From the sequence record PV357170.1: a DNA stretch of 42,358 bases. One strand, written 5' to 3'. Source of the stretch: a phage. The notes beneath the pieces were generated by a model. The model was not told the DNA's origin. It saw only the letters and a list, made by a program, of their open reading frames with translations, and made no database searches. Position 1 is the first letter of the stretch; every line of letters starts with the position of its first letter. The position numbers and the translations under genes are program-made. Shown in pieces: positions 11,846 through 26,065 of the stretch.

Positions 11846-12826
11846 TTATTTAGAACGACCAACCCAACGACCATTGTCGTCAAGTAACATCGGAATTAAC
11901 TGGGGACAACCCTCCGTGATTACCAGTACACCCAGGATTGGTTTCTTACGGGTGAGTCTGCCGTAAGCAAAGGCCATGCTCTTGCGGTCAATCAGGCACC
12001 CTGCATATGCGCCAAAATACAGTGCCGTAGAAGAAGCCGCATATTGTACTTCGAAGCGCCCATGTTCATGCCCCAAAACGAGCGACGTTCTCTCGTGGCT
12101 CGCGTTAAGCATGAAGTCGCCGCTAACCTGATGTTGAAACCGGACGGGCCCGAGAGGTGTACTAAGCACCCAAGCATCGGCCCACGACCAACCTGGAGCA
12201 CTATGCTCGGGGAATAGAATGTCCCGGTATCGCTTAATAAATTGAACTGGTAAGCCGTGAGCCTTGGCGCGGCGATATACAAGACTCCCGTGATTGGAAT
12301 CGCAAACAAGAAGGTTCGGGAATAGTTCATGCAGCTCCTCCAGCACTAGCTTAGCTTTCTCCAGTTCCACCCCGGCACTGTCTAGGTTCGGGTTACTTTC
12401 GTGGAATGATATAGCGTGGCCGTCCGTCTCATCACCAACCTGTACCACCATGTCAGGACAGTATTCATCCCGCACACTTTTTAGGAAGTCCATGGCATCT
12501 ACGTGAGTATAGGGGGCATGCAGATCACCGACAACGAGAATACGGTGGCATACTTCCGGTACGAAGGTTTTACCGATGTCATCAGTGGGGCTAGGCTGTA
12601 TGAGCTTTAGTGCCTCCTTCATGTGAGATACTGCCTTACCCTTGCTACCATTGTGGTCTAGGAAGATGCTGCGCCAGTACTTCACCATCTGGCGGTACAC
12701 CACCGGCTCAGCTAGTCCTGCCAGCTTGTTGTAGGCGGCTGCAGCGTCCACGTTAGAGCTGTGCTTGCTTAGGATATCTACGTGCTGCTCTTTGGTGAAT
12801 AGCTTGATTGTGTTTAACTTAGGCAT
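11846..12826 (-). CDS. calcineurin-like metallophosphoesterase
   Basis: Motifs VVGDLHAPY (GDxH), VQVGDETDG (GDxxD) and CDSNHG (GNH) in the canonical order. Confidence 0.65.
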   Translation of the reverse strand: MPKLNTIKLFTKEQHVDILSKHSSNVDAAAAYNKLAGLAEPVVYRQMVKYWRSIFLDHNGSKGKAVSHMKEALKLIQPSPTDDIGKTFVPEVCHRILVVGDLHAPYTHVDAMDFLKSVRDEYCPDMVVQVGDETDGHAISFHESNPNLDSAGVELEKAKLVLEELHELFPNLLVCDSNHGSLVYRRAKAHGLPVQFIKRYRDILFPEHSAPGWSWADAWVLSTPLGPVRFQHQVSGDFMLNASHERTSLVLGHEHGRFEVQYAASSTALYFGAYAGCLIDRKSMAFAYGRLTRKKPILGVLVITEGCPQLIPMLLDDNGRWVGRSK

Positions 12827-13253
12827 TCCAGCTCCTGTTACTTATCACGTCACTGATTACATGTACACCCACACCATACTTATTAGCAAAGTGTTGCCGC
12901 ATACCTTTCTTGTACGGGACATAGTTGGCCCTAATATCCCGCACGGCGTCCCAAGATAGCAGTGCTTTTGGGTTTCGCTCTCCCCGTACATCTGGGTTCC
13001 TTCCACGTTCCGCACGGTCATTCATATTATCCAAGTGCGTCCCTAGCACTAAGTGCTCTGGATTAATGCACCTAGGGTTATCGCAGGTGTGTCTAACAGA
13101 CAGCCCGGCCATTGCCCTTATGTCTATCCCGTTATGCTCAGCGTACACCACCCGGTGCAGAAGCTCCAATTGTTTAGTTGGCTTATACCATGCCCGGCGG
13201 TACCCGTTCTTATTAAGGCATTTGGTATACCCATGGTCAATGCACATCGACAT
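12819..13253 (-). CDS. HNH homing endonuclease (paralog 2), immediately 3' of the DNA polymerase region
   Basis: HRVV...HTCDNPRCINPEHL HNH core; AAGAGGA RBS; own ~160-bp AT-rich upstream spacer (13254-13416). Confidence 0.8.
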   Translation of the reverse strand: MSMCIDHGYTKCLNKNGYRRAWYKPTKQLELLHRVVYAEHNGIDIRAMAGLSVRHTCDNPRCINPEHLVLGTHLDNMNDRAERGRNPDVRGERNPKALLSWDAVRDIRANYVPYKKGMRQHFANKYGVGVHVISDVISNRSWNA

Positions 13254-13638: not shown

Positions 13639-15974
13639 TCTACTTTCTCCTTACTGTACATGCTTGTACCCATTTCAGCTTCCGCTGGGAACGGGACCTG
13701 CCCAATGATACCGTAGTTAGGCCATAGCTGGTGGATACGCTTAGGTGCGTCTTCCATGCACTGCTTAACTAACAGGCTCGCTTCTCTGCCTACCTCTGGA
13801 TTGGCACTGTCAAGATACAATGCATCGTGTACGTTCGTAATCAAGCACACCTGATTGTCGAACCAGTCACGTGCCAGCATCGCACGCAGAACCATACCGG
13901 CTGCGACTGCCATCAAGAAGAACGCCTCACCTTGACACCAGTAGTTAGCCATCTCGGTTTCCTTGTAGTCCATCACCTTCTGCTTGCGCTGGCCAGGGAC
14001 TACTTCCTTCCACTGCTCCTTCTGACGGAAGCTGTAGCGGGCACCTGCTGGGCTGGTCCAGGTACCAATTCGGTAGATACGATAACTACCATCATCAGCT
14101 TGCTCCCGGTAAATGCGTCCAGCTGCCCCGGTACGCTCTACTTCTTCCTTGACAACAGCGCGGAATCCTATGGTTGTTGGGAACAGCTTAGCCTCGTTAT
14201 CCAGGAACGCCTGTGCATACTCTACGGTACATCCGGTAGCAAAGGCGATACCCTTAGCCGTAGCACCATACTGCGCAGCAAAACTAGGGGGCTTAATGTC
14301 CGTACGCTGCTGCTTCCAGTACTTGTAGTCTGGCCCGTCAGCGTTATGGCACAGGTCGTACATCTCTTCGTAGGTTTTGTTCTCCTTAAATGCTAGTCGG
14401 TAACAGTGCATGTCCGTGCCGGACTGCAGTAGCCCCAGTAGTTTAAGGTCTCCAGTGTGAACACAAGACATAACCACTTCCAGGGCCGAATAGTCAACCT
14501 CAGTGATGCGACCAGATTCTCCGAAACGAGAGGTGAACATCTGTTTAACCCGGCTCGTCCCATCGCGCGGTAGATTCTGGAGATTCGGGTTAGAACCTGA
14601 CAGTCGCCCGGTGACGGTGGCACAGGTGTTAAGACGGTGGTGGATAATACCTGAACCATCAGGGTTCTGAGGTATGACGTATTGAAGCATGCCCGAGGTC
14701 TTTTTAACTGACCCATCTTCGTTGTACTCCGTTCGTAGATAGTAGGTTCCTGTGTCCTTCTCCAGAGCACCTAGCTCGTTCACCAATCGACAGAACTCGA
14801 ACCCGTGACGGGCTAGCGCTTCCATAGCATCAGTACTGGTGCTGTAGATTGGTGTCCCATCCTGCAGATTCCGGGCTTGCCTGAACTCTCCACGCTCAGC
14901 ATACTTCTCTCGGAGTACCTCGGGCAGTTCTTGGATGTTAACCAGGCCTGGGCAGAAGTAGAGGTCCTCTTCCCATTTGAGTTTCTCTTCCGCTGTATCT
15001 ATGCGGAAGACTTTTGGTAAGCCCTTGTTCTTCCCGGCCTTGTATGTAGTCGCCCCAGGGGGAGCGGGCATATCATCCACAGCAACCCAAGTGTCGCCTA
15101 CTTGCCAGTAGTCCGCCTTGACGTATTGCGGCGGGTCGTAGGGCACCTTCTTGCGGTACTTGATAGGGCCGCCATACACCAGCGCAGACATATGAAAGTC
15201 AGAACCGAAGTTGAAATCTAGCGTCTCCGGCAAGTCCTTGGGGATATACTGCTGCAGCTCCTTCTTAATCTCCAGTATACGCTGTTCCTGCTCTTCTTGG
15301 TTCTTGCGAGCAATCGGCATATTCACGAACAGACCGAACCATTCGCAGTAGGCCCAGGCCAGTAAGGCATCCATGCGCTCCCATACGTACTGCATTTGGT
15401 TGCGCTCTGCAAAGATACCGCACTGGCCGTAGAAGCACAGGGCCGTGTTCGGTATATCCCCGTTAACTAGGTAGTCGTGCAATAGTATAGGGTCGATCTG
15501 GGAGGTTAATACACCTTGCTCCCATAGAATCTTAACACCGTCTACTTTGTGCGTACCGCCGTACTTAGGAGCTGTCTCGTCCAGTGACGGATACATACTC
15601 TGAAAGTCCGAGGCGATGTACTCAGAATGCATCGTACAGAATACGCGACCTCCCCGCTTTAGGAAGGCCTCAAACTCGGCGCGCGCAAAGGTTAGGAACC
15701 AGCTAATCTCATATGCGGCGTTGTGGGCCACAATCAGCCAACAGTCAGCTGGTATTGGGAGCCATTCTGATACAGGTGCCGCTTCAAAGTGCGCGCGACT
15801 GTTATACCGTACACTCTCTACGGGGCCTACTTCTACCGTACCGTCATCGTGCGTGCGGTCAATACGCCACGCTGATTCTACGATGTAATTATCCGGACAG
15901 TACGGGGAAGCAACACTACCGTAATATGGGTGATTTTGCGTCTCATAATCCGTTATCAGGATGCTTCTGCTCAT
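13635..15974 (-). CDS. family A DNA polymerase with 3'-5' exonuclease domain
   Basis: Exo I ITDYETQ at N-terminus; Pol motif A DYSALEV, motif B KPPSFAAQYG, motif C NVHDALYLD; GGGGAGGG RBS. Confidence 0.9.
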   Translation of the reverse strand: MSRSILITDYETQNHPYYGSVASPYCPDNYIVESAWRIDRTHDDGTVEVGPVESVRYNSRAHFEAAPVSEWLPIPADCWLIVAHNAAYEISWFLTFARAEFEAFLKRGGRVFCTMHSEYIASDFQSMYPSLDETAPKYGGTHKVDGVKILWEQGVLTSQIDPILLHDYLVNGDIPNTALCFYGQCGIFAERNQMQYVWERMDALLAWAYCEWFGLFVNMPIARKNQEEQEQRILEIKKELQQYIPKDLPETLDFNFGSDFHMSALVYGGPIKYRKKVPYDPPQYVKADYWQVGDTWVAVDDMPAPPGATTYKAGKNKGLPKVFRIDTAEEKLKWEEDLYFCPGLVNIQELPEVLREKYAERGEFRQARNLQDGTPIYSTSTDAMEALARHGFEFCRLVNELGALEKDTGTYYLRTEYNEDGSVKKTSGMLQYVIPQNPDGSGIIHHRLNTCATVTGRLSGSNPNLQNLPRDGTSRVKQMFTSRFGESGRITEVDYSALEVVMSCVHTGDLKLLGLLQSGTDMHCYRLAFKENKTYEEMYDLCHNADGPDYKYWKQQRTDIKPPSFAAQYGATAKGIAFATGCTVEYAQAFLDNEAKLFPTTIGFRAVVKEEVERTGAAGRIYREQADDGSYRIYRIGTWTSPAGARYSFRQKEQWKEVVPGQRKQKVMDYKETEMANYWCQGEAFFLMAVAAGMVLRAMLARDWFDNQVCLITNVHDALYLDSANPEVGREASLLVKQCMEDAPKRIHQLWPNYGIIGQVPFPAEAEMGTSMYSKEKVE

Positions 15975-16392
15975 TCCATACCCTCCCCTTTATGATATTA
16001 GATATGTATCCTTGACTTATCCCGAAGCGTCTCGCTATAGATACCTGGGTCTCACCGCCAGCATATGCTTCTCGTATACTGTGCACGTCTTCTGGGGTAA
16101 GTCTGGCAGCAGGGTTGCGGCTGCCCAGCAAATTACGCGCACCTTTATTTCGGTCCTGCATATTATCACTAGAAGTCCCTAGTAGCAGGTGCTCCGGATT
16201 TATGCACCGAGGATTGTCACACGAATGCCGGACTACAAGTCCCGCGATATCACTCAGCTTCAAGTTGTGGGCTATACAATACGCTTTGCGGTGGCTTCCA
16301 GTTGTCTCTCCATCAAATCTGGAGCGGCCATATCCAGCGCACTTTCCTCGGCAAGTGCTTCCCTTCTGCCCGTGGTCGATACAATCTGTCAT
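15943..16392 (-). CDS. HNH homing endonuclease (paralog 3), overlapping the DNA polymerase start
   Basis: HSCDNPRCINPEHL core plus C-terminal helix-turn-helix-like IARRFGISQGYISNI; ATG at 16392 (track ORF starts at a TTG at 16398); 3' end overlaps the first ~10 codons of the polymerase gene. Confidence 0.8.
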   Translation of the reverse strand: MTDCIDHGQKGSTCRGKCAGYGRSRFDGETTGSHRKAYCIAHNLKLSDIAGLVVRHSCDNPRCINPEHLLLGTSSDNMQDRNKGARNLLGSRNPAARLTPEDVHSIREAYAGGETQVSIARRFGISQGYISNIIKGRVWNEQKHPDNGL

Positions 16393-16697
16393 CTCCAATT
16401 AATCCTCCGCGCCTTATTGACAGCCAAGTGCACAATCAGCCGGCTGCTAATTAGCACGGGCCGTATGCTGAAAGTACCCACAGATGCAGCGTACGCCTTA
16501 ATTACCTCTTCGTCGAGATAGTTAATGTCGGACGGTTTAAGCATTCTGCCTTCTCCCACACTGGATGCACATACCACCTATAAATGTCAACCTTGCCCCG
16601 CAGTGCTTGCACTCCCAGTCTGTCAGTATAAACATAGTATATCTCCATCCATCATCTGTGTACCTACATAGCGCCCTCTAGGAAGGCGCTAGGGAAG

Positions 16698-22160: not shown

Positions 22161-22206
22161 TTTCTTTGTCTCCGGTGTTAGTAGTATCTCATCATGCATT
22201 AAAAGT

Positions 22207-22551
22207 TCAGCGTGCATACCACGCTGAGAGTTGTCGCTGCTTATAATACGAGCGCACAGCCGCCCTAAATCTTGTATAGGCTCCACGATACCCGTACCGT
22301 AGGAGTGCTGCAACCACATCGAACGAAATGTGCTCTTGCAATCTGCGCGCGGCAGACTCTGTATACTCTCGATAGGTTGTGAGAACAGTGCCAATACCCT
22401 CTTTTCTAACGCGGAGTAATCGGCGCTCGACTGGCACGATTTGCTTGAGTTCATCTGGAACCTCTTTGAATATTTCCCACGAGCACCCGCACTTGCCCTG
22501 CGTTTCTAGCAAGCGCCAGCACAGTAGCGCTGTTTCGTCTACTGTAAGCAT
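22207..22551 (-). CDS. hypothetical early protein (114 aa)
   Basis: ATG at 22551 with AAGGA RBS placed right after the upstream gene stop; track ORF starts earlier. Confidence 0.45.
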   Translation of the reverse strand: MLTVDETALLCWRLLETQGKCGCSWEIFKEVPDELKQIVPVERRLLRVRKEGIGTVLTTYREYTESAARRLQEHISFDVVAALLRYGYRGAYTRFRAAVRSYYKQRQLSAWYAR

Positions 22552-24458: not shown

Positions 24459-25100
24459 AAACTTGCCCCTTAGAGAATATAATCTAGCGCAGCCTCATTA
24501 CTACTGCGCTATGTTATACACTCTTTGCGGGATACACTCCGCGCCTTGTTCCCTCGATTCAGAGGAGCGTGCTGCTCACGCCTCGGCAGTAAGGTTTGCC
24601 TCAGAACCCCGGTGATAACGTCCGGCACGTTTACTCTTTATGACTGATTATCTAGGATTGGTCGTCATCGTACCAGTCAAGGTACTGGGCCTCCCCGCAA
24701 ACCAGCTTACTACGTTGTTCGCTATCTAAGTTACTAGGTGAATCTGAACTTGTCAAGCGTTATTTCTTACTTTTAAGCCGTCCGGTTTATGTGTCCGGTC
24801 ACCTGTAGCGGCTTGCTACGTGGAGGTGTCCTAGTTAGCGGCCTGTCTTCAACTATCCTGCCGTACTACTTGGATTCAATCTAGCTTATGTTCTTCGCGG
24901 TGTCAACTCTTTTATCGAGTATCTAACCCTTCACACCATCTAGCTTTAATCCGGTGGAGTCTCCCGACTCTACCCCGGTTAGCGCCTCAGTGCCTCCCGG
25001 TGATTGAACTATAACGCTAACAAACCAAAATAAGCAAGTACTTTTTGCAATTATTTATCTCTAAGAGCAAAAAGGGTAAGCAAGGCAATGGTTTAGTCAA
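24459..25100 (-). promoter_or_regulatory. probable early promoter / leader region (no individual promoter pinpointed)
   Basis: Non-coding DNA directly upstream of the first early genes; only weak -35/-10 candidates found by eye (e.g. TTGACA near 24751-24756 with a poor -10). Confidence 0.3.
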
Positions 25101-25110
25101 TGCTTCCATT

Positions 25111-25714
25111 CTAGGGATAGCTCTAGGGATAGCCCACTACTAGCCAATGCTAACCAATACAATCTAACGCTACACAAAGCAGAACGTAGTGCCCGTACGA
25201 AGTGAAAGGGCACGTAGTGATGCGGTGACTGTGTTGGTAATGCTTACTCCCTACGGTCGTAATATAGGGCATTACTAGGGGATACTAGTGAGTAGTAGTA
25301 AGTAGTATGTATCTAGTGCCCTAAAACCCTCCTACTCGTGTAACATCATTTCAAATTAGCTTTCGAATGAAAGTAAGGGTGAAGGGATAGCTCTAGGGAT
25401 AGCGACAGAGTCCGGCAGAGTGTAGCGGATAGTGGCGGGTAGTGGATGTGCGCCCTAGTGGGGAGCGCGCAGCGTAACATATAATCGGCGCAATGTAAAG
25501 CACTAGAGATAACCTTAGAGATAGCTCTAGAGATAGCATATAGACGCACTAGCAGCGCACTGGGCGGCCCACTACGGCCCACTAGGTGTGGCACTATGGC
25601 TGCACAAAATAAGCAAGGCAGAGCGCACCCCTATGGCCCACAGGGAGCGCACAGGAAGCGCCCTAGTGAACGCACAGGCATAGCCGTAGGGTAGCACTAG
25701 CGATAGCCCTAGCG
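25111..25714. repeat. array of short direct repeats: 11-bp motif CTAG(R)GATA(G/A)C in 8 or more copies, including a 21-bp unit present three times
   Basis: agggatagctctagggatagc at ~25113-25133 and ~25383-25403 (identical) and the G-to-A variant agagatagctctagagatagc at ~25517-25537; further copies at ~25503-25513 and ~25697-25707; tandem ggcccactac/ggcccactag at ~25566-25585. Confidence 0.75.
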
Positions 25715-25809
25715 CAGCGCAGAGAGCCGCTGAGAGCGCCATAGAGGCACTGGCAGGCCCCAGGCTGCCCGCGGCCATCTAGACGTCCAGACATCCAGCC
25801 ACCTAGATA

Positions 25810-25819
25810 CCCCCCCCCC
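25810..25819. repeat. C10 homopolymer tract
   Basis: Uninterrupted run of ten C in the non-coding region, about 230 bp from a G11 run on the same strand. Confidence 0.8.
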
Positions 25820-26026
25820 TAAATTCTCCCAGGACACCCCCTATGGGGGCAATTGGGCGCGTTGAGGGTGAGGGACCCTGTCGGGTAAGTATAACAAATT
25901 TCGAGTTCAGATATACACCTGCGCAGGGGGAGAAGTCCTTGTGATGTTCCAGGCGCTTCTCTTGTACCCACTTGCAGATAACTTCGTATATGCACCTGGA
26001 ATAGTACTTATAAATACTAACCTACA

Positions 26027-26063
26027 AAAGGAAAAGCCCCCAACTACAGGGGGGGGGGGCTTT
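26027..26063 (-). terminator. Rho-independent terminator ending the late transcription unit
   Basis: Minus-strand RNA: GCCCCC...GGGGGC GC hairpin (includes the C/G homopolymer) followed by UUUUCCUUUU, directly after the stop of the last late ORF. Confidence 0.5.
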
Positions 26064-26065
26064 GT

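Follow-up and report, generated by a model that had tools for sequence, protein, structure and literature searches.

Arrays of short repeats beside the terminal repeat of T7-type phages have been visible since the first sequences became available, and to our knowledge their role was never settled. In the T7 sequence paper of Dunn and Studier the short repeats were reportedly named SRL and SRR. For T3/T7-like phages of Yersinia from 11 to 34 repeats were tabulated in the interval that separates the left terminal repeat from the first phage promoter (PMC5923468). Here we analyse short co-oriented repeats in a stretch of 42,358 nucleotides (record PV357170.1, called the window below at its full length), which is a contig of a KP34-like (Drulisvirus) phage. 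Judging from comparison with related genomes, we are highly confident that these repeats represent the KP34-clade version of the one-strand arrays located in the T7 group in or beside the left terminal repeat, and equally so that the element is conserved. The feature is thus of a kind already known in T7-type phages; new are its motif, the occurrence of this motif in four genera, its inverted orientation in one of these and a position that is consistently centred on the repeat boundary. The element is genuine and subject to selection; both the role and the binding protein proposed for it below are guesses.

Results

Repeats in the leader of the window

All long open reading frames (ORFs) of the window lie on the minus strand, and its coding DNA is 92–94% identical to that of Escherichia phages Minorna and AV102 and Klebsiella phage KPV811, which are Drulisvirus phages (subfamily Slopekvirinae, family Autographiviridae). 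The repeats were found in the place assigned to them by an earlier sequence-only reading, that is with the last late gene on one side and the first early gene on the other, in the terminal repeat and concatemer-junction neighbourhood of a T7-type genome. The non-coding region there, estimated before as 1.9 kb, is shorter: the sole long ORF-free stretch of the window covers positions 24459–26065 (1.6 kb). In the contig one collapsed copy of the terminal repeat separates the last late gene, on its right, from the early leader, on its left. Along the gene strand the order is the genome end, the direct terminal repeat (DTR) with cluster 1 of the repeats, cluster 2, cluster 3, a phage promoter, cluster 4, a host promoter and the first gene (Table 1).

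The 11-mer CTAGRGATARC has five exact matches in the 42,358 bases (25111, 25123, 25393, 25503 and 25527), all on the plus strand, while shuffled controls gave 0.14 on average and 1 at most, so the frequency is far above that expected by chance. With one mismatch allowed the number of copies rises to seven owing to those at 25515 (TTAGAGATAGC) and 25697 (CTAGCGATAGC). All copies fall within 25111–25707, and the motif count over the whole window revealed no spread of the motif through coding DNA. An eighth copy, AAGGGATAGC at ~25382–25391, has the GATAGC core but no CTAG, and the claim of at least eight copies is valid, therefore, for the core and not for the full 11-mer. On the plus strand 7 of the 18 GATAGC copies of the window fall in 25116–25707. 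Read on the gene (minus) strand, the conserved core is the hexamer GCTATC; in the form GYTATC it is present at the left genome end contained in the window in 8 copies, on one strand only and with 12-bp spacing.

Several details of the first description needed adjustment. The 21-mer that includes the motif is indeed identical at 25113 and 25383, but its copy at 25517 differs by two G-to-A changes (90% identity). The distance of about 12 bp between neighbours was confirmed (12 bp from start to start), although instead of adjacent pairs throughout there are two pairs, one triplet and one single copy. The density of CTAG is approximately 5-fold higher in the ORF-free gap (14.3 per kb versus 2.8 per kb elsewhere), but the argument built on the general rarity of this tetranucleotide is weak, because genome-wide it is only slightly depleted (138 observed versus 164 expected). 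A tandem ggcccactac/ggcccactag repeat was found as described, and belongs to a family GGCCCACTA(C/G) with 10-bp spacing whose copy number differs among aligned relatives. Units of TAGTGAGTAG/AGTAGT type occupy positions 25283–25310, just downstream of the phage promoter.

The region is unlikely to encode a small protein: ORFs of 40–82 codons vary in position and length among 15 relatives, which have no conserved ORF in the repeat region, and this possibility was therefore dropped. Rfam search of the region gave nothing meaningful in the repeats and one sub-threshold match at the terminator past the last gene. The G+C content is 51% across 25001–26000, where no AT-rich stretch is present.

Table 1. 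Positions of the repeat clusters and of other features in the window
Feature	Coordinates	Strand	Remarks
DTR, one collapsed copy	25621..25874	-	placed by homology
Palindrome CCCCCTATGGGGG (CCCCCATAGGGGG)	25837..25849	.	near physical end, in conserved terminal sequence
Hexamer cluster 1	25687..25707	-	inside DTR; GCTATC 25707-25702 beside degenerate GCTACC; plus strand TAGGGTAGCACTAGCGATAGC
Second phased short-repeat family GGCCCACTAC/GGCCCACTAG	25567..25586	-	plus-strand sequence given; between DTR and cluster 2
Hexamer cluster 2	25503..25537	-	three units, 12-bp spacing; minus strand GCTATCTCTAGAGCTATCTCTAAGGTTATCTCTAG
Hexamer cluster 3	25383..25403	-	two units, 12-bp spacing; second exact copy of the 21-mer
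Strong promoter of KP34-type phage RNA polymerase, TGATGTTACACGAGTA	25333..25348	-	one base off KP34 TGATGTTACAGGAGTA (KP34 nt 475-490)
Hexamer cluster 4	25111..25133	-	two units, 12-bp spacing; first exact copy of the 21-mer
Host sigma-70 early promoter TTGACA-17-TAGATT	24878..24906	-	homologous to KP34 annotated 931-959; conserved in alignment
Terminator past last gene	26052->26037	-	
Strong-promoter copy, exact	4514->4499	-	match to T(A/G)ATGTTACAGGAGTA
Strong-promoter copy, exact	36175->36160	-	match to T(A/G)ATGTTACAGGAGTA
Strong-promoter copy, weaker, intergenic	13292->13277	-	three mismatches
Small terminase subunit, T7 gp18 family, 100 aa	31914..32216	-	Pfam PF11123 DNA_Packaging_2, E = 2e-19; candidate binder

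Position of the clusters relative to the genome end

Deposited records of KpV41, phiBO1E, KpV71, AttikonH2 and KP34 start at the base homologous to position 25873/25874 of the window, and the physical left end is most probably located there; the minus strand reads CCTCACCCTCAACG at this point. DTRs annotated in these five genomes are 214–246 bp long. In KP34 the DTR ends with ...CCATAGGGGTGCGCTC, immediately followed by TGCCTTGC beyond the boundary, and because the homologous block recurs at 25636–25613 of the window, we placed the inner boundary at 25621. With both edges defined in this way, by the ends of relatives and by the boundary block of KP34, the contig appears to contain one collapsed repeat. 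Coordinates of the DTR and of the cut site in the window derive from homology with relatives rather than from mapped ends. Among the relatives, ends of phiBO1E were resolved by Sanger sequencing and those of fHe-Kpn01 were mapped by PhageTerm and ligation. The worry that the region results from mis-assembly is justified for the terminal repeat, which is collapsed to one copy here, but not for the hexamers, since they recur in finished relatives with experimentally mapped ends. Relative to the boundary, hexamers are found 81–86 bp inside (25702–25707) and 84–89 bp outside (cluster 2).

The terminal palindrome listed in Table 1 is present in all Drulisvirus ends examined and in phiKDA1, and also in T7 (nt 26–38) at an equal distance from the end. 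The longer terminal sequence CCTCACCCTCAACGC...CCCCCATAGGGGGTG (25837–25849 and 25861–25874 in the window) is common to Drulisvirus and phiKDA1. A C10 run in the DTR (25810–25819) and a G11 run beside the terminator of the last gene (~26048–26058) are mutually complementary. The length of the C10 run differs among relatives, which makes it a likely hotspot of sequencing or slippage errors.

Conservation within Drulisvirus

Fifteen Drulisvirus left ends were compared, one of them from the window, nine from deposited genomes and five from IMG/VR contigs. In the first 820 bp of each, GYTATC occurs 5–11 times on the gene strand and never on the opposite one, compared with 0.5–0.9 times in shuffled sequences. 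Spacings between neighbours that do not exceed 40 bp are distributed as 10 bp (5 cases), 11 bp (12), 12 bp (31), 21–23 bp (9) and 32 bp (1). The clusters occupy fixed places in the alignment, i.e. inside the repeat, ~85 bp past its boundary, just before a fully conserved block and further in. Retention of individual hexamers at aligned positions in 13 other left ends is high for cluster 1 (11 of 13) and cluster 2, whose three hexamers persist in 11, 12 and 13 relatives, is intermediate for cluster 3 (11/13 and 6/13) and falls to only 5–7 of 13 for cluster 4. Mean column agreement across the region is 73%. The segment with cluster 4 is absent from KPV811, KpV71 and IMG/VR contig L081, so this cluster looks dispensable. 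In literature searches we met no account of these repeats for Drulisvirus.

A perfect small hairpin CTTTCATTCGAAAG (gene strand, ~25362–25375) is situated directly upstream of the phage promoter, in a block invariant across all fifteen left ends. Another conserved block contains a perfect TATAAT at 25480–25485 on the plus strand, facing the genome end. It has no good −35 element and reads TAGAAT in KP34. The leftward host promoter A0 of T7/T3 is found in a comparable place.

The same motif in other genera and equivalent arrays in other lineages

Outside Drulisvirus only (G)GCTATC(C) is conserved, the CTAG part being specific for this genus. Pantoea phage LIMElight has six copies of GCTATC located on both sides of the repeat boundary, and Vibrio phage VP93 has nine, in 11-bp pairs after a terminal-like sequence (~42240–42300). 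Enterobacter phage phiKDA1 and the related IMG/VR contig L125 also have the motif, but with the entire array in reverse orientation with respect to the genome end. No array was seen in LIMEzero. The sequences surrounding the hexamers can hardly be aligned: BLAST of the region was limited in phiKDA1 to 62 bases of terminal sequence and gave no match in LIMElight or VP93.

The record of VP93 (NC_012662) seems permuted in comparison with its relatives, with the terminal-like sequence and the nine hexamers after it (42240–42700) ~1.3 kb before the annotated right repeat and overlapping annotated hypothetical ORFs 43 and 44. On the opposite strand of LIMElight, at ~525–545, the sequence GACGTTATAGAGTGAGG resembles phage promoters annotated in this genome (ACGTTATAGAGAG); it lies just past the hexamer array and points toward the genome end.

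One-strand arrays with 10–13 bp spacing were registered by the same analysis in other lineages, where they are composed of CTAAAG (T7/T3), CTTAGT (SP6) or CCTGG(C/T) (phiKMV/LKA1). In all of the eight phages with annotated DTRs motif copies are present on both sides of the inner boundary. The last copy inside the DTR, the boundary itself and the first copy outside are at positions 60, 160 and 175 in T7; 154, 231 and 257 in T3; 83, 174 and 260 in SP6; 281, 414 and 468 in phiKMV; 267, 298 and 321 in LKA1; 224, 267 and 327 in phiKDA1; 247, 277 and 337 in LIMElight; and 130, 216 and 321 in KP34. Different motifs are used by T7 and by Drulisvirus phage Minorna, although E. coli is the host of both. 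The tandem pair GCTATCYCTAGRGCTATC has 32 matches in 596 Gb of bacterial genomes, all isolated, none enterobacterial and none clustered; they come from unrelated taxa and were treated as chance. Judging from these comparisons, the motif follows the phage lineage and not the host.

A scan of viral contigs for GGATAGC-N5-GGATAGC gave 120 loci, mostly chance single matches, and the useful ones came only from Drulisvirus contigs and one phiKDA1-like contig. Multi-copy matches in three other IMG/VR contigs (L060, L019 and L026) are long arrays of unrelated 12-bp tandem repeats (GGGATAGCGTCNGG; GGGATAGCGTC(N)GG), seemingly in-frame coding repeats of unrelated phages that share the GATAGC core by coincidence. 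One more match (L082) falls in an intergenic region of a high-G+C phage.

Promoters in the leader

The strong promoter of KP34, T(A/G)ATGTTACAGGAGTA, was experimentally defined at nt 475–490, 22197–22212 and 33721–33736, and its variant TGATGTTACAGGAGTA drives transcription in vitro (PMC6834552). Promoter copies of the window correspond in position to KP34 nt 475, 22197 and 33721, and the one in the leader (25348->25333) holds the place that phiOL has in T7. Clusters 1–3 are upstream of this promoter, the third one immediately so, and cluster 4 is downstream of it. All four clusters are upstream of the host promoter, the distance from cluster 4 to its −35 element being 205–227 bp. The host promoter (24906->24878) marks the downstream edge of the untranscribed leader in which the arrays are located. 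The hexamers themselves were considered as phage promoters and rejected, since they are unlike both KP34 classes, T(A/G)ATGTTACAGGAGTA and the weak ACTTTGGACATCCGTCAAGT.

Side observations on the contig

The window does not represent a closed genome: ~1.46 kb present in Minorna is absent, covering the start of the tail tubular protein B gene and all of that for tail tubular protein A. In what remains of this protein B, Tyr347 of Minorna is replaced by an in-frame stop (42159–42161). Differences are clustered around this stop, close to the end of the contig, and could be due to assembly error. Two ORFs on the minus strand (15943–16398 and 12819–13253) encode HNH homing endonucleases, one of them with a C-terminal helix-turn-helix, and similar endonucleases are inserted inside the left leader of relatives, for instance BUCT86 and AttikonH4.

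Discussion

Proposed role of the array

A packaging or processing signal is the best reading of these repeats. More specifically, it may be a binding array, or landing pad, for a protein of the phage involved in processing or packaging of the concatemer junction, which we consider quite possible rather than probable. Replicating concatemers contain a single terminal repeat at each junction. A phage-encoded protein could bind cooperatively, in several copies, on the array, and co-oriented copies separated by about one helical turn are well suited for that. A protein filament or wrap formed on hexamers flanking the inner boundary would mark the junction and position the maturation and packaging machinery there, its small subunit (T7 gp18 family) being the likeliest binder. 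In this scheme the outcome would be a repeat correctly cut and duplicated. It is the maturation and packaging step that is pointed to, because the copies flank the inner boundary, where the cut of the concatemer makes the right end. A binder encoded by the phage looks likelier than a host one, because the motif tracks the phage lineage and enterobacterial genomes lack the tandem pair. In lambda and SPP1, phased short repeats next to the cut sites are recognised by the small terminase.

The initial suggestion of a dimeric DNA-binding protein survives in part. A protein-binding array does fit the strand specificity, helical spacing and conservation across genera, but a symmetric dimer on a palindrome is not implied, since the units are arranged head-to-tail. 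A more doubtful proposal is that (G)GCTATC(C) serves as the recognition word for a maturation or packaging protein specific to the clade, for which the small terminase of the gp18 family is the likeliest candidate. The complex for cutting and duplication of the terminal repeat would then be assembled by the arrays flanking its inner boundary. Identity of the small terminase to its homologues is 74% in phiKDA1, 61% in LIMElight and 68% in VP93, i.e. in phages sharing the motif, and 37% in LIMEzero.

A number of observations weigh against this scheme. The similarity pattern of the small terminase is no different from that of RNA polymerase, DNA polymerase and large terminase (30058–31914); every core protein is closer in the motif-sharing genera than in LIMEzero, so the small terminase is not singled out. 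Primase, an internal virion protein and a 144-aa ORF have no LIMEzero match, but a role of the primase is made less likely by the inversion of the array. Gp18 of the T7 family is not known to bind DNA sequence-specifically, and no solved structure of a small-terminase relative was found. Koutsourovirus has the array in the opposite orientation, so that its direction relative to the cut site cannot matter, and for a directional packaging signal this would be unusual. Across the junction there is no matching array, as 25875–26065 holds a single GTTATC; on this right-hand side KP34 and IMG/VR contig L025 have a few GTATC(C/T)CT units, and T7 has copies of CCTAAAG. Finally, cluster 4 is missing in some viable relatives.

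Other explanations

Participation in replication or recombination is unlikely, but survives better than the other alternatives. The hexamers could form, together with the phage promoter, a transcription-primed origin, or they could serve for loading proteins of replication or recombination close to the repeat, which must be regenerated. In T7 an origin is made up of a phage promoter and downstream sequence, and the region of the phiOL promoter is a secondary origin. The KP34-type strong promoter between clusters 3 and 4 and the succession of terminal repeat, short repeats, phage promoter and host promoter, the same as in T7/T3, are in line with this possibility. However, T7-type origins require no iterons, hexamers are present also inside the terminal repeat, far from the promoter, and phiKDA1, LIMElight and VP93 keep the hexamers without having the Drulisvirus promoter sequence. 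Origin iterons in the strict sense, to which the repeats were first likened, are unlikely: the units are 12 bp long with a core of 6–7 bp, the region with its 51% G+C has no AT-rich stretch, and no initiator gene was found by Pfam scans of 20 early and middle ORFs (~28 others were outside the scan) or in the annotations of Minorna and phiKDA1. Genes seen there are those for primase, helicase, polymerase and homing endonucleases.

Binding of a host protein, to DnaA-like boxes or as a nucleoid protein, on the DNA that enters the cell first could in principle affect entry, end protection or early transcription, and location of the array in the leading few hundred base pairs, upstream of the host promoter, is compatible with such a function. 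Some copies (CTATCCAC) coincide with the DnaA box TTATCCACA in 7 of 9 positions, and co-oriented arrays with ~11-bp spacing resemble low-affinity DnaA arrays of oriC. Nevertheless this seems improbable to us: it is G-CTATC that is conserved, while the 3′ half important for DnaA varies; T7, T3 and SP6 use other motifs on the same or closely related hosts; and the tandem pair was not found in enterobacterial genomes. As DnaA boxes proper (TTATNCACA, with 3′ CACA) the repeats were rejected, the best copies matching in 6–7 of 9 positions around a conserved G-CTATC-(C) with a variable 3′ half.

Hardly more credible is the origin of the repeats by slippage or unequal recombination, with no sequence-specific role and with persistence in a non-coding leader tolerant to changes. 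Close relatives do differ in copy number and spacing, clusters come and go as a whole, and other short repeat families exist alongside. Such an origin would have to account, however, for the same heptamer in four genera whose flanks are barely aligned by BLAST, for the absolute strand bias in 15 of 15 Drulisvirus ends and for hexamer positions of clusters 1–3 shared by up to 13 of 13 relatives on a background agreement of 73%.

The least probable is a directional signal, either for pausing or termination of the phage RNA polymerase at the junction (compare T7 class II ATCTGTT) or for primase at sites fixing the start of the last lagging-strand fragment: strict single-strand orientation within each genus, similarity of the variant CTATCT to part of the T7/T3 junction sequence CTATCTGTT and a primase conserved in the motif-sharing genera with no match in LIMEzero speak in its favour, but the hexamer is unlike either KP34 promoter class, and in phiKDA1 and L125 the array as a whole runs the opposite way with respect to both genome end and transcription, which a strand-dependent signal should not tolerate.

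Implications

One heptamer present in four genera with hosts from Klebsiella to Vibrio, absolute strand bias and natural inversion in one genus make a convenient test case. Taken together, these three properties provide a handle for identifying the protein that binds the array, and open the question of how T7-type ends are recognised and duplicated. Should (G)GCTATC(C) be recognised in this way by a maturation or packaging protein, most likely the small terminase, this would be the first defined protein–DNA recognition code for concatemer-junction processing in the T7 supergroup, and would explain why each lineage (T7/T3, SP6, phiKMV/LKA1 and the KP34 clade) has a separate motif. In practical terms, the conserved end sequence and the arrays locate true ends in collapsed or permuted assemblies of therapy-relevant Klebsiella phages, and define the DNA to be kept in phage engineering or in packaging-competent phagemids.

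Comparison with known systems

Direct repeats of ~11 bp in the centromere parC of plasmid R1 are co-oriented and helically spaced like the hexamers, and in both cases the arrangement suits cooperative coating by a small protein. However, the phage of the window is lytic and linear and has no partition genes, so the analogy is one of form only. With iterons of plasmids and lambdoid phages the array has in common direct repeats, spacing of about one helical turn and location in a non-coding region. It differs in the size of units, typically ~17–22 bp in iterons against 12 bp with a 6–7 bp core here, in that no initiator gene and no AT-rich unwinding stretch were found, and in that copies reach into the terminal repeat. 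Similar in the working principle, and only in it, are R sites of lambda cosB and the pacL/pacR boxes of SPP1, which are likewise short phased repeats beside the terminase cut, believed to be bound by multiple subunits. Small terminases of these phages are not homologous to the one encoded in the window, which belongs to the T7 gp18 family. Besides, T7-type maturation must also duplicate the repeat, and orientation of the array in our case is apparently irrelevant.

The closest counterparts remain the short repeats of T7/T3. Their motif is CCTAAAG instead of GCTATC, and they form one long run, whereas here four clusters are dispersed over ~600 bp with conserved blocks between them. One of these clusters is downstream of the phage promoter, there is no clear right-hand array, and in a sister genus of the phage studied the array is inverted. 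The two kinds of array belong to the same virus family and are located inside or just past the left terminal repeat, upstream of the first phage and host promoters. Both are composed of a 6–7 bp motif that is repeated on one strand with 10–13 bp spacing and varies in copy number between relatives. A feature of this kind is also formed by the repeats that separate the left terminal repeat of Yersinia fPS phages from phage promoter P1 (PMC5923468). The order of elements in T7/T3, i.e. repeat, short repeats, phiOL and promoters A1–A3, is paralleled by that of the window.

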